In this document: positions 7,742-21,036 of the stretch, one piece after another | Layout: each line of letters starts with the position of its first letter | Position numbering within the stretch: the stretch's first letter is position 1 | The notes under the pieces: generated by a model | Told to the model about the DNA's origin: nothing | What the model saw: only the letters and a program-made list of their open reading frames with translations | Database searches by the model: none | Origin: an uncultured Candidatus Saccharibacteria bacterium | Lineage (GTDB): Bacteria; Patescibacteriota; Saccharimonadia; Saccharimonadales; 2-12-FULL-41-12 | Reading direction: 5' to 3' | DNA: 64,000 nucleotides | Assembly (NCBI GenBank): GCA_964648105.1 | Contig: CAZYMH010000004.1 | Coordinates: 70,083 to 134,082, forward strand | Made by a program: the position numbers and the translations under genes

Positions 7742-9229
7742 TTAAGCTTTGCTTTTAATAGCAGATTTTTTGCCTTTACGAACAGAGTAACTACTCAAGA
7801 AATCATAGACAGAACTACATTCGGCAAGAGTATTATTGCCGCTGTTAGGAACTTCGATTTTTGATTTAAACCTTAGAACTTCGTTGATAGCTTTATTTTC
7901 TTCTTTAAGTCTCATTATCCTGTACTGAAGAGCCTGTGCAGTTTCGCTGTCAATTAGCCCTAATTCAATACCTCGCTGTAAAGTATCTTGGTAAGTCGCA
8001 CCACTCAACACATTTTTATAGGCAATAAAGTATTTAGTAGATTCTTCATCGCTGCCGATCCATGGCGTTAAATCTATTAATTTGTTAACAATTTCAGATG
8101 GAACTACTGATTCACTTAAGTCGTTTTTTACTACGTGAGTTAATTTACTTGAGATAGATTGACGTAGTCTTCGGCCATCTTGAGTACTATTAGGATTTTC
8201 AACTAATTCTTCTAAGATATCGTCTGATTCTATCGAAGCCGTAGGGTCATCTTTAACTTGGTGACTTTTTCCGATTATTTCAGCTACTTTTTGGCTAAAT
8301 TTGGCATGCTGAGCTTCGACTACTGATTCTACTTGACTTAACTGACTGATTTTGGCAGCGATTTTTTCAATTTCATCTAGTTCTGAGCCAAGTTCTTTGC
8401 TTAATCTTTCATACTCTACCCGTACATCTTCATCAGCCAATAACTCGTCAATTCTACAGTCAATTTCTTTGTCTTCGTTAGTAAGATACAAGATAGTTTC
8501 TGATATTCCAGCTATGGCTTGATCTTCTTGCTCGACATACTGAGTGTGTTTTGCGTCTAAGCCTGAGGCAACTTTTTGATCGATTGCGGCAATCATTTGC
8601 TCTAATTTATTAGCTGGAGATGAGCTTTTTCTATCTGCACTTAATAGTTTTAGTACTAATAAAGTTTCCTTAGCTTCTAATACTTCTTCGATATCGACAT
8701 CATCGCCCAAAAATCCGATGTTGTTGAGCATTTTATATTCGTGGGCAAAAATTTCTTTGTTGAGAGATTCGATTTTTTCATCACTAACCCCTTGATCACT
8801 TTCTTTAAGCGGATTAAATCGGTTAACAATATTTGTAACTGCTTGACTGGTTGCATTTAATTTTTTAGTCTTTCGTGCTTCTTCATCAGTTAACTCTTTC
8901 TTTTCTGCTTCTATTTCTTGTTTTCTGACTTTTAATTTGACCATTTGCGGTCGAATATTCTTAGCTCGTTCTTTGGCCCCATAAATTCGATCGATATCTT
9001 GCTTACATAACTTATTTAAGTCAGCTAAAGAAATTTCGTCGTCTATATTAGCTTCTTTTTCTGAGCCAGTTTCATCTTTATTCTGCGGTTCATTAGCTGA
9101 TACTGTTGCTTCTAGTTCAGCTTCAGCTGGACTTGCAAAAACTTGTTGCAATGCAGTTTGCCATGGGTTTAATGGGGCTAGATTTTTAGGTTGATTTTCG
9201 GAATTTTTATTGGCTTCTGGTGTTGTCAT
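7742..9229 (-). CDS. hypothetical acidic coiled-coil protein (495 aa)
   Basis: Long track ORF, rich in Glu/Lys/Asp with heptad-like stretches. No catalytic motif recognised. Confidence 0.6.
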   Translation of the reverse strand: MTTPEANKNSENQPKNLAPLNPWQTALQQVFASPAEAELEATVSANEPQNKDETGSEKEANIDDEISLADLNKLCKQDIDRIYGAKERAKNIRPQMVKLKVRKQEIEAEKKELTDEEARKTKKLNATSQAVTNIVNRFNPLKESDQGVSDEKIESLNKEIFAHEYKMLNNIGFLGDDVDIEEVLEAKETLLVLKLLSADRKSSSPANKLEQMIAAIDQKVASGLDAKHTQYVEQEDQAIAGISETILYLTNEDKEIDCRIDELLADEDVRVEYERLSKELGSELDEIEKIAAKISQLSQVESVVEAQHAKFSQKVAEIIGKSHQVKDDPTASIESDDILEELVENPNSTQDGRRLRQSISSKLTHVVKNDLSESVVPSEIVNKLIDLTPWIGSDEESTKYFIAYKNVLSGATYQDTLQRGIELGLIDSETAQALQYRIMRLKEENKAINEVLRFKSKIEVPNSGNNTLAECSSVYDFLSSYSVRKGKKSAIKSKA

Positions 9230-10156: not shown

Positions 10157-10180
10157 TCACCTTCACGCATTTTTTTGGTT
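10157..10180. repeat. left 24-bp direct repeat (att-like) of the island
   Basis: TCACCTTCACGCATTTTTTTGGTT is identical to 12853-12876. Thirteen nt (ACCTTCACGCATT) are identical to tRNA-Leu gene positions 12958-12970. Confidence 0.9.
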
Positions 10181-10869
10181 CAGCTTAAAAACGTTTTTTT
10201 GGGATTGAAATTGTTAGGTTTTTTAAGTTGACACCATATATTCTCAATTTTATGTCGCAACTCACTCAGTGTCCCATTGTTGATAACATTAAATTCGGCT
10301 GACCATTGGCTTATCTGATATTCGCTTAGTAGGTTTGAACTACCATCTCTATGGAGACTTACTACTGAGCCACTAGAGCGTGTAACAACTTGCTTGTCGG
10401 CAACGGTACGGATACCACCGATAGTTACTAGTTCTATGCCTGTTACTTTAGCAGTAGAAACTTTACTATATACGATATCACTCCATACATTTGGCGAAAT
10501 AAGTTGAATTGCACTCCGTCCAATCCATTCAAGTAATGGGCGGTGCAAGGTTTTTGTTTCCAGTGATAAGTTACGAACTATTGAACCTTCAGATATTTTT
10601 CTTGCATATGCTTCATTAAGTGTTAACAAATCATCTTGTGTAGGGTTATTTATACTCGAGATGCCGAGTACTTTCAGCAATTCACTCCTTTGTGATGTAA
10701 TATCTGACGCATCATCAGGAATAGCGTTCAGCCACATTTGCCCAGCCTCAATAATAGGGTCTGAAAACTCAATATGTTCATGTCGGGATAGTTGAGCAAT
10801 GTCAATGAGCATATTAGCCGCGGTCGTTTTTCCACTACCTGCTGCACCCCCAAAGCCTACAACGTACAC
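10180..10869 (-). CDS. P-loop NTPase, dNMP-kinase-like (229 aa)
   Basis: Walker A GAAGSGKT at residues 9-16. A later IGGIRTVADKQVV...GSVVSLHR segment resembles the core of dNMP-kinase-type proteins. The GTG start overlaps the upstream stop by 1 nt (TAGTG). The TGA stop abuts the left direct repeat. Confidence 0.65.
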   Translation of the reverse strand: MYVVGFGGAAGSGKTTAANMLIDIAQLSRHEHIEFSDPIIEAGQMWLNAIPDDASDITSQRSELLKVLGISSINNPTQDDLLTLNEAYARKISEGSIVRNLSLETKTLHRPLLEWIGRSAIQLISPNVWSDIVYSKVSTAKVTGIELVTIGGIRTVADKQVVTRSSGSVVSLHRDGSSNLLSEYQISQWSAEFNVINNGTLSELRHKIENIWCQLKKPNNFNPKKTFLS

Positions 10870-12116
10870 TACATTCCTACTTCGCTCGGCAAAGTCTGCA
10901 ACATGAATTCCTCTGGCTGCTCTGTGAATATAATCCGCTTGCCAAGTGCATGTGCGTATCCTATCTCAATAAGAGCAGAGGCTCCGACGTAGCCGCCTGA
11001 AGCACACACGACAAGTGCATCACAATCATTTATCATATCTAGATGATATCGCTCCAGTTCAAGTGGAGACATACCTTCTTCACCTTCAAATACCACGAAT
11101 TCCTCTCCAGGATTCTTTGAGTCTTCAAATCGAGGACTCAGTATTTCTACTCGTTGCGATGAAAGTTTCTGTTTAATAGCCAATATATAGGGTAAATGCT
11201 TTCGAAAACTACCTGATAGTACCACTGTACGATACTCTTGCTTTGCGGTACCGTGAATCATATTTAAATCTGATGGGACTAATTTTTTAACGCTGAAATG
11301 TTCGATGATTGCCTGTGCTATCGCTGAACAAGCTCGAGCACCATGCATCCACAAAGGGTCACTCGGCATGAGCAACTCTAACTCTTTGAGTGATATATGC
11401 TCATATACTTCTTGATTTTTGATAGCGAAATCTTTAGGAATGATGAAATATGGATGGTCATAATCCTGGAAGATATCATTAGGTCGCAAATTATACCTTA
11501 CAAGCCGCATATATGTAAGCTCGCCCCCATTATATATTGCGACAGGTGTCTCTATAGAACTTTGAGGTAGAAGCTTTTTAATAGCGTTAACTACTTGGAT
11601 CAAACTGTGACCAGAATAATTCTCATTAAGCCTTGGAAACTCTTCGAGCACTGAACCAACACCAATCTCAAGATAATATCGCTCCAGCACTTCACCGTGC
11701 AATTTGACAATCAGCTCTGTCGAGCCTCCGCCAATATTTATAAGTAGGATTGGTGTATCAGATACGTATTCCGAGGATAGTGCTTTTTCTAGATAAAAAC
11801 CCTCAAGTTCATGGCTCACGATGTTGAAATATAACCCTGTTTCTCGGAAGAAGTCATCAGATAACTTTCGTTTTGCCAACAATGTCATCTTGCGAAAGAG
11901 AGCGGTCGCGAAAACTTTTATTGTCTCGCCGTCATGCTTCTTTTTAATATCCTTTACATAATCAATCAATTCATCTTTATTGGCTTTTATAATTCCTTTT
12001 GCGGGAGCAAATCCCTCCTTGAAGTGAAAGCTTTTAGTTCCTAGAAGAGCTAGGCCTTTGTCTGAAGATTTATATACCTTAACTGTTGATGATCCGATGT
12101 CTATATAGATTGCCAT
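10869..12116 (-). CDS. Ppx/GppA-like ASKHA phosphatase fused to a C-terminal nucleoside 2-deoxyribosyltransferase/DNPH1-like domain
   Basis: Ppx/GppA motifs are present: IYIDIGSSTVKVY, FATALFRKM..ETGLYFNIVSHELEGFY and LLINIGGGSTELIV. The C-terminal ~120 aa (VVLSGSF...CDALVVCASGGYVGASALIEIGYAHALGKRIIF) follow the NDT-fold pattern. I prefer the ATG at 12116 because AGGAG lies 11 nt upstream. The track ORF starts at the GTG at 12128. Confidence 0.7.
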   Translation of the reverse strand: MAIYIDIGSSTVKVYKSSDKGLALLGTKSFHFKEGFAPAKGIIKANKDELIDYVKDIKKKHDGETIKVFATALFRKMTLLAKRKLSDDFFRETGLYFNIVSHELEGFYLEKALSSEYVSDTPILLINIGGGSTELIVKLHGEVLERYYLEIGVGSVLEEFPRLNENYSGHSLIQVVNAIKKLLPQSSIETPVAIYNGGELTYMRLVRYNLRPNDIFQDYDHPYFIIPKDFAIKNQEVYEHISLKELELLMPSDPLWMHGARACSAIAQAIIEHFSVKKLVPSDLNMIHGTAKQEYRTVVLSGSFRKHLPYILAIKQKLSSQRVEILSPRFEDSKNPGEEFVVFEGEEGMSPLELERYHLDMINDCDALVVCASGGYVGASALIEIGYAHALGKRIIFTEQPEEFMLQTLPSEVGM

Positions 12117-12139
12117 ATAATTTAGCACTCCTTCTCATC

Positions 12140-12190
12140 AGTATATCATACTCATATACTCATGTGATACATTTGAGTAACGTGTGTTAC
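12140..12190. promoter_or_regulatory. divergent promoter/operator region of the island
   Basis: Inverted repeat AGTATAT-N7-ATATACT at 12140-12160. Tandem 8-mer ATACTCAT ATACTCAT at 12148-12163. Palindrome GTAAC-GTGT-GTTAC at 12177-12190. A TATACT -10-like hexamer lies at 12155-12160. Confidence 0.45.
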
Positions 12191-12191
12191 A

Positions 12192-12785
12192 GTGGATACT
12201 ATGAAAGATAGTCTAAACGTGCACTTCATAGCTCCAAAATCTAATATAGAGGAAGAAATCGAATACTTTCGGGCAATCGTAAATGCGATTCACGCTCGAG
12301 GTCACACACTTGCAAAAGACTGGCTTGAACCAGGATATTTACTACATACAAATAAGAGACCTCACGAGATCATCGACTGGGCTACTTCTTGCAGGGCAAA
12401 TATTGAGTCTATTCCGTCTAGCGACGTCGTAATAGTGGAATTGTCAACAAAAAGTTTTGGCGTAGGTTATCAGACTGGCCTTGCAGTCTCACAAAAGAAA
12501 CCAACACTACTACTCAGGAGAGAAGGAATCTCTAAGGAAGCATTCTTGGGGGGATTGGACAACCCTTACGTTACAAAGGCTGAATATAGACTAGAGACTA
12601 TAGATAGCATTATCGGAGCTTTTTTAGAAAATGATGACGACGAGATCAAAGACATCCGTTTTAACCTTCTTATTGACAGAAAACTTAATAGTTATCTTAA
12701 GCAGACTTCATTGAAAACAGGTAAGACTAAGGCTGAGATTATCCGCGAGCTTCTGAAGGGTCAACTCGAAAAAAACAACCAATGA
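12192..12785 (+). CDS. NDT/DNPH1-like domain protein with a C-terminal ribbon-helix-helix-like tail (197 aa)
   Basis: VHFIAPK..., then SDVVIVELSTKSFGVGYQTGLAVSQKKPTLLL, which follows the NDT/DNPH1 pattern with Gln where the family Glu is expected. The C-terminus KTKAEIIRELLKGQLEK looks RHH-like. The start is either GTG 12192 (track) or ATG 12201. Confidence 0.65.
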   Translation: MDTMKDSLNVHFIAPKSNIEEEIEYFRAIVNAIHARGHTLAKDWLEPGYLLHTNKRPHEIIDWATSCRANIESIPSSDVVIVELSTKSFGVGYQTGLAVSQKKPTLLLRREGISKEAFLGGLDNPYVTKAEYRLETIDSIIGAFLENDDDEIKDIRFNLLIDRKLNSYLKQTSLKTGKTKAEIIRELLKGQLEKNNQ

Positions 12786-12809
12786 TATTGAAACTTCTTT
12801 TTTAAATTA

Positions 12810-12858
12810 GCTTTCAAGAGTGGACTCCCTTGCAGACTGCCACTGGCAGTCTTCACCT
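12810..12858. repeat. 49-bp repeat element with hairpin, copy 1 (inside the island's right end)
   Basis: GCTTTCAAGAGTGGACTCCCTTGC + AGACTGCCACTGGCAGTCT + TCACCT. The same element occurs at 13180-13228, where the hairpin arms differ by compensatory changes. Confidence 0.85.
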
Positions 12859-12876
12859 TCACGCATTTTTTTGGTT
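12853..12876. repeat. right 24-bp direct repeat (att-like) of the island
   Basis: Identical to 10157-10180. Confidence 0.9.
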
Positions 12877-12902
12877 TGGTTCAAATCTGTCGCCACCCCA
12901 CT

Positions 12903-12932
12903 AAAATAACCTGCTTTACAGCAGGTTATTTT
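12903..12932 (-). terminator. candidate intrinsic terminator downstream of tRNA-Leu
   Basis: Perfect 12-bp inverted repeat AAAATAACCTGC-N6-GCAGGTTATTTT, beginning 3 nt after the tRNA 3' end. A T-run forms the 3' end of the stem on the minus strand. Confidence 0.5.
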
Positions 12933-12935
12933 AGT

Positions 12936-13020
12936 TGGTGCGGATGAAAGGACTTGAACCTTCACGCATTGCTGCACTAGTTCCTAAGACTAGCGTGTCT
13001 ACCAATTCCACCACATCCGC
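12936..13020 (-). tRNA. tRNA-Leu (anticodon UAG), type II with long variable arm, CCA encoded
   Basis: The reverse complement is GCGGATGTGGTGGAATTGGTAGACACGCTAGTCTTAGGAACTAGTGCAGCAATGCGTGAAGGTTCAAGTCCTTTCATCCGCACCA. Folded by hand: acceptor GCGGATG/CATCCGC, anticodon stem CTAGT/ACTAG, loop CTTAGGA, T-arm GAAGG-TTCAAGT-CCTTT. Confidence 0.93.
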
Positions 13021-20343: not shown

Positions 20344-21036
20344 TTACTTCTTATTTGCGTTTACTTTATTAGCAAAAATCATTTTACCAGCTTCGGTCTG
20401 AAACATTCGTGTGACATTGACTTCAACTTTTTTACCAACACTATTACCAGCTCCACTGACTACGACCATCGTACCGTCGTCAAGATAGCCAACACCTTGG
20501 TCTCGATTACTGCCTTTTTGTAATATTTTTATATTATGCCGCTCTCCAGGCAAGGCGTTAGGCCGTAAACTTTGAGCTAATTCATTGATATTTAGCACAT
20601 TTACTCCTTCGACCAAAGCGACTTTATTCAGGTTATAATCATTGGTGCATAAATAACAATTTTGATCACTGGCAAAAGCCACCAATTTATCATCGGTAGT
20701 TTTAATATTTGGATAATCTTTACTAGATAAAATCACGTGTGAACTAAGTTCTTCTTGAAGCAACTTAATAACATCGAGTCCATATCTTGCCCGCTCACGC
20801 TTATGGGAATCATTACTATCAGCTATTAATTGAAGCTCTGACACAATAAATTTTGGAATGATTAATTTACCAGGTAAAAAATTGGTCTTAGCGAGTTCTA
20901 ATATTCTGCCGTCGATAATTACGCTTGTGTCAAGCACAACATTTTGCTTATTTTTAGTAACTGGTTGTTTGTTTTTTTTGGAGATTAACATGATGATTGT
21001 TAGTAACAAAAGTATTTGAATTATATTTAAGTACAT
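20344..21036 (-). CDS. PIN/TRAM domain membrane protein (YacL-like)
   Basis: N-terminal TM helix, a PIN-like segment (VLDTSVIIDGR) and a C-terminal TRAM-like segment (GVGYLDDGTMVVV...VEVNVTRMFQT). Confidence 0.8.
   Translation of the reverse strand: MYLNIIQILLLLTIIMLISKKNKQPVTKNKQNVVLDTSVIIDGRILELAKTNFLPGKLIIPKFIVSELQLIADSNDSHKRERARYGLDVIKLLQEELSSHVILSSKDYPNIKTTDDKLVAFASDQNCYLCTNDYNLNKVALVEGVNVLNINELAQSLRPNALPGERHNIKILQKGSNRDQGVGYLDDGTMVVVSGAGNSVGKKVEVNVTRMFQTEAGKMIFANKVNANKK

Follow-up and report, generated by a model that had tools for sequence, protein, structure and literature searches.

Described relatives of the locus

The N-glycosidase DNPH1 (Rcl), a 2'-deoxynucleoside 5'-phosphate N-hydrolase also termed hmdUMP hydrolase, which carries the catalytic triad Tyr24/Asp80/Glu104, sanitises the nucleotide pool in humans (PMC10603095). 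Here we describe a locus of three genes, termed A, B and C, with similarity to DNPH1 and to several other proteins that handle nucleotides. It lies in a stretch of 64,000 nucleotides (nt) from an uncultured Candidatus Saccharibacteria bacterium (assembly GCA_964648105.1, contig CAZYMH010000004.1, positions 70,083 to 134,082), and this whole stretch is referred to as the window. We tentatively propose that the three genes form a self-regulated cassette for the maintenance of the deoxynucleotide pool of Saccharibacteria, a reading that we regard as the most likely one, at slightly less than even odds, and that would give the cassette the sanitising role of human DNPH1.

Each fold in the cassette is already known. 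The N-terminal domain of C has the fold of DNPH1 (about 20-24% identity) and shares with it the SxGVGY(E/Q)xG segment and a phosphate-binding Ser, but it differs in a His/Asn/Gln triad and in a probable DNA-binding tail. The C-terminal module of B shares with DNPH1 a Gly-Ser-x-Arg loop and the nucleophile Glu; it is only remotely similar, however, carrying Val/Ile in place of the Tyr and His in place of the Asp, and it is fused to a predicted ASKHA phosphohydrolase. The best solved sequence matches of this module are the CMP (hydroxymethyl-CMP) N-glycosidases MilB and BlsM and the nucleoside 2-deoxyribosyltransferases (NDTs), whose catalytic Glu corresponds to Glu384 of B, although the scores are weak and B differs in its fusion to another domain and in a His at the general-acid position. 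The substrates of true NDTs are nucleosides, and these enzymes have no phosphate loop. The N-terminal half of B has the same two-lobe ASKHA fold as the short two-domain PPX/GPPA of Aquifex aeolicus and the PPX/GppA of H. pylori (target-normalised template modelling (TM) score 0.71), with both phosphate loops and both catalytic Glu; it differs in an Asn for Asp, in extra invariant motifs and in having an NDT-fold partner instead of the helical domains III/IV. A matches the phage deoxynucleoside monophosphate (dNMP) kinase family of T4 gp1 over its full length and shares its P-loop, but is chromosomal in a Patescibacteria genome, is translationally coupled to B and has a specificity that is predicted.

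The logic of removing unwanted nucleotides is also that of the house-cleaning enzymes (MazG, NUDIX/MutT, Ham1/ITPase, dUTPase), which are fused to B-type modules or adjoin B. These enzymes stop at the monophosphate, whereas B would break the glycosidic bond and would have a dedicated pseudo-enzyme regulator. The ligand-sensing RHH (ribbon-helix-helix) repressors NikR and MetJ and the nucleotide-sensing repressor NrdR join a small DNA-binding module to a domain for a small molecule and control genes of the same pathway, as C would do. The comparison extends to the divergent or autoregulated position of the regulator and to an inverted repeat as operator, but the sensor of C would be a dead N-glycosidase (DNPH1-like) fold. 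In the literature we found no description of a DNPH1-like fold as the sensor of a transcription factor, nor of an ASKHA(Asn-type)::NDT fusion as a conserved Patescibacteria family, of its cassette with a dNMP kinase or of the operator, which agrees with an initial annotation of this DNA that had put the system forward as a candidate undescribed one.

The features of the locus are as follows, with residues numbered from ATG 12116 for B and from ATG 12201 for C.

10180-10869, minus strand: gene A, predicted T4 gp1-type dNMP kinase, 229 amino acids (aa), GTG start (open reading frame, profiles)
10869-11231, minus strand: C-terminal NDT-superfamily module of gene B, residues ~296-415 and stop (PF05014, MilB profile)
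11232-12116, minus strand: N-terminal ASKHA module of gene B, residues 1-~295 (PF02541, PDB profiles, AlphaFold2 (AF2) model and Foldseek)
12117-12200, no strand: divergent B/C promoter region with candidate operator (sequence, motif enrichment)
12201-12629, plus strand: N-terminal DNPH1-fold domain of gene C, residues 1-~143 (PF05014, DNPH1 profile, Foldseek)
12639-12785, plus strand: C-terminal probable ribbon-helix-helix (RHH) tail of gene C, KDIRFNLLIDRKLNSYLKQTSLKTGKTKAEIIRELL (conservation, weak RHH matches)

The open reading frames extend over 10180-10869 (minus strand) for A, 10869-12128 (minus strand) for B and 12192-12785 (plus strand) for C. From exact database matches the likely start of B is ATG 12116 (415 aa) and that of C is GTG 12192 or ATG 12201 (194 aa for the latter). 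The TAG stop of B and the GTG start of A overlap by one base (ATG-TAG-TG), with AGGA about 8 nt upstream, and relatives show at the B/A junction an overlap of 0-7 nt or else no more than 20 nt between the genes. The initial annotation had reported these three reading frames, a number of motifs and the TAGTG coupling of A and B, and a check of reading frames and sequence found all of them present. Its domain assignments were also borne out by the searches described below, namely Ppx/GppA for the N-terminus of B (structural matches at E of about 1e-19), NDT/DNPH1 for the C-terminus of B, where the window protein itself stayed below the profile cutoff, and dNMP kinase for A. For C it had predicted a DNPH1-like domain with a Glu-to-Gln change, to which alignment added an Asp-to-Asn and a Tyr-to-His change; the replacement of three catalytic residues supports its idea of a dead enzyme acting as ligand sensor, and the RHH-like tail that it had suggested is probable, not proven.

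Gene B: a Ppx/GppA-type module fused to a candidate N-glycosidase module

The N-terminus of B scored above the cutoff of 27 bits for the Pfam family PF02541 (Ppx-GppA), at 40 bits (E=4.2e-10), and a profile of the B family matched Aquifex PPX/GPPA (1t6d, E=1.7e-13) and H. pylori PPX/GppA (6pc0, E=1e-10). For the AF2 model of B (pLDDT 91.2, pTM 0.86) the best 37 Foldseek matches were all PPX/GppA, with E-values down to 8.6e-20 (1t6d), and NTPDases came next. This search with whole B listed ASKHA matches only, and the C-terminal module was therefore examined by domain-only profiles. B keeps both phosphate loops (DIGSSTVK and GGGSTE) and both catalytic Glu (E105 and E134, invariant in 38 sequences). 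E105 is of the E. coli E121 type, and E134 aligns with the position changed in the inactive E143A structure of the H. pylori enzyme (6pc1). The Asp that opens the DxGGGSTE motif is Asn127 in B and Asn in 111/111 close homologs; among 49 distant representatives of the subfamily, fused or standalone, the position held N, I, C, T, V or S and never D. Since this position is never acidic across the subfamily, the alignments place the ASKHA module of B in a distinct Ppx/GppA clade rather than among the canonical exopolyphosphatases. The module has extra invariant motifs (YNGGELTYM, DHP and PxDPxWMHGARACSAIAQA), and conservation of B was strong and uniform throughout the family alignment.

One Saccharimonadales genome encodes a separate Ppx-GppA-family gene 4.6 kb downstream of B (L004:10883-11248), and B is therefore not simply the exopolyphosphatase of the cell. 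Two B homologs (P0087 and P0097) have Trp at the conserved Gly of the family (NIWWGSTEL, WYVW). This matches a mistranslated UGA, which encodes Gly in the Gracilibacteria-type code 25, and is an annotation artefact.

The C-terminal module of the window B stayed below the cutoff of PF05014 (E=2.7e-4, 21.5 bits against 28.8) and was likewise sub-threshold for PF15891 (E=0.017), and the PF05014 cutoff was passed by its relatives P0229 (32.5 bits) and P0316 (31.4 bits). A domain-only profile that included standalone relatives matched MilB (4jen) with E=0.0014, NDTs with 0.05-0.6 and BlsM with 0.38, and in the AF2 model the order of secondary structure elements (four beta-alpha units) fits the NDT superfamily. 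For SEML1_0813 of Southlakia epibionticum, a short homologous form, structure-based annotation placed the equivalent domain in the N-deoxyribosyltransferase group of ECOD (PMC10633639). The Gly-Ser-Phe-Arg-Lys loop of B (GSFRKH) resembles the phosphate-type loop GSIRGG of DNPH1, and Glu384, kept in more than 90% of the B family, falls on the catalytic Glu in the IEIGWA motif of MilB. Gly-Ser and the nucleophile Glu were invariant in 19 diverse relatives of the NDT module, including standalone and MazG-fused ones. By a hand register from printed alignments, His358 takes the position of the general-acid Asp of DNPH1 and MilB, and Val/Ile is found at the Tyr position of the triad. We regard the module as a candidate nucleotide N-glycosidase of the MilB/DNPH1 type.

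B homologs form more than 540 clusters at 90% identity. They are full length, with 53-76% identity across classes, which makes B one of the better-conserved uncharacterised proteins of Patescibacteria, and their sources are Saccharimonadales, WWE3, Gracilibacteria and other Patescibacteria, plus a single bin with the label Babeliales. The homolog from this bin (P0036, 64% identity, labelled Candidatus Babeliales (Dependentiae)) lies outside Patescibacteria and has either passed horizontally between two lineages that both depend on hosts or been wrongly binned. No B was found in the viral contigs and phage genomes searched.

The family is modular. Besides full fusions there are standalone ASKHA proteins of ~300 aa, standalone NDT-like proteins, fusions with the reversed order NDT::ASKHA (P0316, P0340), a NUDIX::ASKHA fusion (P0230) and NDT::MazG fusions (P0310, P0313, P0323, P0329). 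Independent joining of the two enzyme folds of B in either order is a strong sign that their reactions are coupled, and together with the fusions to house-cleaning pyrophosphatases it argues that the ASKHA and NDT halves act sequentially on one nucleotide. A further form of ~255 aa combines a degenerate first ASKHA lobe, in which the DIGSST loop is lost, with an intact NDT-like module (P0265, P0288, P0304, P0307, P0311, P0319, P0336 and SEML1_0813).

Genes A and C: a predicted dNMP kinase and a probable nucleotide-sensing regulator

Gene A matched the dNMP kinase family PHROG 139 over residues 1-222, its full length, with E=3e-14. The Pfam domain DNMK (PF21448) was present in 16/20 members of the A family, with a best E-value of 2.2e-8 and one of 0.14 for the window A alone, and T4 dNMP kinase (1DEK) was matched in the C-terminal half with E=4.9e-4. 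The Walker A motif of A is GAAGSGKT, and GxxGxGKT is invariant in the family. Taken together, the profiles and motifs identify A as a dNMP kinase of the T4 gp1 type.

Gene C matched PF05014 with E=5.5e-5, and in profile comparison DNPH1 (4fyh) with E=7.7e-12 over residues 3-141. The best 50 Foldseek matches of its model were all DNPH1, with a target-normalised TM score of ~0.76. In the alignment, His8, Asn67 and Gln91 of C stand in place of the three triad residues of DNPH1. Asn67 is more than 90% conserved, and the position of Gln91 varies between Q, E, D and R, a drift as expected if catalysis has been lost in C. The phosphate-binding Ser (S98 in DNPH1) is mostly kept in the C family. The changes from Asp to Asn and from Glu to Gln are the substitutions used to trap substrate in DNPH1 crystals (4fyh, 8rps, E104Q), so that C carries by nature the changes that crystallographers make on purpose. 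Because the triad is replaced, we predict C to be a non-catalytic nucleotide sensor. It has the DNPH1 fold and, judged by these residues, is not a member of that family as an enzyme.

The tail is the best-conserved part of the C family. Its sub-threshold Pfam matches were RHH_3 (0.012, positions 4-42 of 44), RHH_1 (0.03-0.04) and RepB-RCR_reg (0.018), with a further weak match to a RelB-like family (0.024). Among PHROG families it matched a phage transcriptional repressor (5.9e-4), a CopG-like (0.0058) and an Arc-like family (0.0099). A profile of the tail only gave no solved relative among PDB sequences, and the strand of the tail has low confidence in the AF2 monomer model. We grade the tail as a probable RHH DNA-binding domain, since the matches are weak though all to RHH families.

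Distant C homologs (38-48% identity) are not located beside B and adjoin genes for dCMP deaminase, NUDIX or CYTH proteins. C-family genes were found repeatedly in ruv neighbourhoods, the distant homologs often between ruvA and ruvB; the loci seen were either between ruvA and ruvB (L094:2527-5632 and L096:1006-5683) or next to ruvC and ruvA (L098:948-3356).

A candidate operator between B and C

The 84-bp intergenic region of B and C contains an inverted repeat, AGTATAT-N7-ATATACT, at 12140-12160, which overlaps promoter-like -10 hexamers of both B and C on the two strands. An ATACA site (12167-12171) and a palindrome GTAAC-GTGT-GTTAC (12177-12190) are also present. A promoter scan of this region gave 11 sites against 8.4 in shuffled sequence, which is no excess, and the promoter calls are only suggestive.

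In the regions upstream of C homologs, TGTAT/ATACA was counted 19 times, where control intergenic DNA from these same loci predicts 2.15 occurrences of the pentamer (p=2e-12 for 328 pentamers), and the enrichment was replicated on four loci fetched later (8 against 0.96, p=7.5e-6). Inverted repeats upstream of C homologs were TATGTATA·TATACATA in L023, TATGTATA-N7-TATACATA in L001 and TAATACACA-N4-TGTGTATTA in L080, and the replication locus L101 carries TATGTATA-T-TATACATA. At least two TGTAT/ATACA sites were present in 4/5 B promoters linked to C, compared with 2/47 without C (Fisher p=2.7e-4). A TGTATA-type inverted repeat thus marks C-linked promoters and is a candidate operator to which C might bind. 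A TGTAAC hexamer, enriched in the upstream regions of B genes as a whole (11/56 against 4/147, p=1.7e-4), was dropped for the C-linked TGTAT motif, as it fails correction for ~2,000 hexamers.

Gene neighbourhoods across Patescibacteria

A genome-collection scan with B alone gave 7 close loci, the closest named relatives being metagenome-assembled genomes of Candidatus Saccharibacteria; the diversity came from a metagenome scan with an alignment. The context counts given here cover 101 fetched loci or, where so stated, 93 or 90 loci, and are inflated by related genomes that are not independent. A was found directly downstream of B in ~20 loci, all from Saccharimonadia. C lies divergently upstream of B in the window, L023/L097, L060, L098, L099, L100 and L101, and also in the WWE3-like L001-3, L080 and L089. 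The full trio occurs in at least six independent places within Saccharimonadia with flanks that are all different (the window, L023/L097, L060, L098, L100 and L101), and neither A nor C is present within 6 kb of B in 71/93 loci. B is thus the conserved core, and A and C are exchangeable partners. The three-gene system predicted by the initial annotation stands insofar as the trio recurs, but it is not a fixed unit.

In L099, genes for Ham1, thymidylate kinase and dCMP deaminase occupy the place of A. Recurrent neighbours of B across lineages were Ham1, NUDIX, adenylate kinase, methylpurine DNA glycosylase (MPG), DUF488, ASCH, RecJ, dUTPase, Tmk, dCMP deaminase, DNMK and a ThyA-like fusion. Another recurrent neighbour ('unk275', 17 loci) was judged unrelated to B, being a variable low-complexity protein with a signal peptide at a distance of 190-350 nt. 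An ancestral fixed position of B was rejected, as no flank of the window accompanies B elsewhere.

A gene for an XRE-family helix-turn-helix protein of 65-68 aa ends 10 nt before B in 8/90 loci (L063, L072, L073, L076, L077, L078, L081 and L085), which belong to one groundwater lineage with B at ~53% identity. Large serine recombinases are encoded divergently upstream of the XRE-B pair, and in L073 downstream too, so that in this lineage B looks like part of a mobile cassette.

In a WWE3 genome (L001:2998-4197, minus strand) a fusion of a ThyA-like domain (residues ~1-205) with an S-adenosylmethionine-dependent methyltransferase adjoins a C-like gene and B. The best solved match of this fusion was MilA, a cytidine monophosphate (CMP) 5-hydroxymethylase (3.2e-8), marginally ahead of thymidylate synthases (8e-8). 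It has the catalytic Cys (VPCVWG) and an Asp aligned with the Asp of MilA, where thymidylate synthases have the specificity Asn. Its position beside the MilB-like domain of B resembles the MilA/MilB pair.

Proposed function and alternative explanations

Patescibacteria, or the candidate phyla radiation, have no de novo nucleotide synthesis and rely on scavenged nucleic acids. From the domain identities, catalytic-residue patterns, conservation and motif enrichment observed in the locus and its relatives we infer substrates, an order of reactions, repression with its relief and a physiological role. The ASKHA half of B would strip a (deoxy)nucleoside tri- or diphosphate of its terminal phosphates, and the NDT half would then cleave the N-glycosidic bond of the resulting 5'-monophosphate, yielding a free base and (deoxy)ribose 5-phosphate. 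Such a destruction of nucleotides would be irreversible. Its likely targets would be non-canonical or surplus nucleotides, perhaps 5-modified pyrimidine deoxynucleotides from scavenged DNA. A, co-translated with B and predicted to be a dNMP kinase of broad specificity, would return useful dNMPs to the dNDP/dNTP pool. C would bind a nucleotide of the same class as the substrate of B and, through its RHH tail, repress the divergent promoters of B-A and of C itself at TGTATA-type inverted repeats, with ligand binding altering the repression.

This proposal is supported by the house-cleaning flavour of neighbours and fusion partners and by the fact that the nearest characterised relatives (MilB, DNPH1 and T4 gp1) handle 5-hydroxymethyl-pyrimidine nucleotides, which are included in the substrate range of T4 gp1. 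One might speculate that a sanitiser of modified dNMPs would suit organisms living on scavenged, often methylated DNA. A more far-reaching form of the proposal holds that B of Patescibacteria is a new two-step enzyme that destroys modified deoxynucleotides, for example 5-methyl- or 5-hydroxymethyl-pyrimidine dNMPs of foreign DNA, before these enter the DNA of the cell itself, and that C is the first transcription factor with a dead DNPH1 as sensor. We consider this form rather unlikely to hold in full. If true, it would give bacteria an equivalent of the DCTD-DNPH1 sanitation axis of humans, equipped with a substrate-trapping regulator, and C would represent a DNPH1-type glycosidase fold recycled as the ligand sensor of a repressor. 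Human DNPH1 is a current drug target. The predictions for B and C link to this enzyme and are testable with purified protein, a nucleotide panel and the 21-bp operator.

Several points weigh against the proposed sanitising cassette. A kinase beside an enzyme that destroys nucleotides is not an obvious pairing. The chemistry of the ASKHA half may differ from PPX/GppA hydrolysis, since the Asp of its metal site is Asn in B and non-polar in distant members. Glycosidase activity of the NDT half is plausible and not assured, since the Tyr and Asp of the DNPH1 triad are missing. The matches of the C tail to RHH families are weak, and the neighbourhood counts draw on related genomes. Finally, the B family is not essential in Southlakia, since SEML1_0813, which is listed as a hypothetical protein, was dispensable in the published co-culture transposon sequencing.

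The same folds would also be compatible with anabolic salvage, in which the NDT half of B exchanges bases on deoxyribose 5-phosphate as a transferase, by way of a Glu-bound covalent intermediate, and the ASKHA half transfers phosphate, as a phosphotransferase or kinase, instead of hydrolysing. Scavenged dNMPs would in this way be rebalanced and pushed to dNTPs by A. The tight and conserved translational coupling of B and A fits this idea, as do the anabolic neighbours of B (ADK, Tmk, dCMP deaminase and ThyA-like), the loss of the hydrolase-type Asp from the ASKHA motif, the transferase activity of NDT-family enzymes and the reliance of Patescibacteria on scavenged nucleotides. We nevertheless consider it unlikely. 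All of the nearest relatives in structure that the ASKHA half has are phosphohydrolases, PPX/GppA first and NTPDases after them, and both hydrolytic Glu are retained. The alternative fusion partners (NUDIX, MazG) are hydrolases, and so are MilB and the DNPH1-like proteins, equipped with a phosphate loop, that match the NDT half best. The strength of the PPX/GppA matches, which are the best both in sequence and in structure and include ppGpp-bound H. pylori GppA, might instead indicate that B is a GppA/PPX-type enzyme acting on an alarmone, polyphosphate or another phosphoanhydride. Its NDT half would then be no more than a nucleotide-binding domain, allosteric or anchoring the substrate, in the place of domains III/IV of long PPX/GppA proteins, and C would sense the same nucleotide. 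The NDT module does stand where the usual C-terminal domains would be, and it is without two of the three DNPH1 triad residues. Even relatives that stand alone or are fused to MazG have its nucleophile Glu and Gly-Ser loop without variation, however, which suggests catalysis, and the ~255-aa forms keep the NDT module while their ASKHA part is degenerate, so that the NDT module would be the core activity. With a genomic context of deoxynucleotide metabolism rather than stringent response and a separate Ppx-GppA in L004, this explanation appears improbable.

The three characterised relatives named above in connection with 5-hydroxymethyl-pyrimidine nucleotides could point to a pathway like that of MilA and MilB, in which B frees a 5-modified base, for example 5-hydroxymethylcytosine or uracil, for biosynthesis or DNA hypermodification and A phosphorylates the modified dNMP in the manner of T4 gp1. 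The ThyA-like::methyltransferase fusion beside C and B in WWE3, with MilA as best solved match and Asp at the base-specificity position, fits this pathway. Neither the window nor the other Saccharimonadia trios have a ThyA-like gene close to the cassette, though, and the discrimination between MilA and ThyA is marginal (3e-8 against 8e-8); we give this pathway little credence. The initial annotation had further suggested phage defence or a toxin-antitoxin pair. In such a conflict system B would be a nucleotide-depleting toxin or anti-phage effector, and C an antitoxin-like repressor that possibly heterodimerises with the NDT half of B, a part that in other lineages would fall to the small XRE protein. 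RHH and XRE domains are typical DNA-binding modules of antitoxins, NDT-fold enzymes work as dimers, and the XRE-B pairs flanked by recombinases, the variable genomic position of B and its high identity across classes are compatible with mobility and horizontal transfer. On the other hand, searching PADLOC-DB gave nothing for B or C and only a chance-level match for A, B was absent from the phage and viral collections, and the window and most other contexts contain housekeeping and no defence genes. A small regulator is not adjacent to most B genes, C is divergent from B, not co-directional and upstream in one operon with it, and has a ligand-type domain, C homologs regulate or adjoin ordinary nucleotide enzymes, and the uniform strong conservation of B is typical of purifying selection on an enzyme. 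The defence and toxin-antitoxin suggestions thus found no support at this locus, and we regard a conflict system as very improbable.

Surroundings of the locus in the window

The neighbours of the locus in the window are housekeeping genes, encoding ClpP, trigger factor, HisRS and an L,D-transpeptidase on one side and, beyond C, tRNA-Leu, RsmD, RecG, TyrRS, a class A penicillin-binding protein (PBP) and DnaE. The GC content of the bins from 10 to 13 kb was 0.39-0.41, compared with 0.355-0.395 in the bins of 5-10 and 13-18 kb. The locus is weakly island-like in its slightly raised GC content, the adjoining tRNA-Leu and its variable flanks, and to this extent the island described in the initial annotation could be recovered, but no integrase was found near A, B and C in the window. 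The tRNA-Leu gene (12936-13020, minus strand) lies 150 nt past the end of C, and a 56-aa open reading frame at 12807-12977, which overlaps this gene, is almost certainly spurious. An acidic, Glu/Lys-rich protein of 495 aa that had no Pfam match is encoded between hisS and the L,D-transpeptidase gene (7742-9229, minus strand). A PIN-TRAM domain protein of 230 aa is encoded at 20344-21036 (minus strand), adjoining the gene for the class A PBP.

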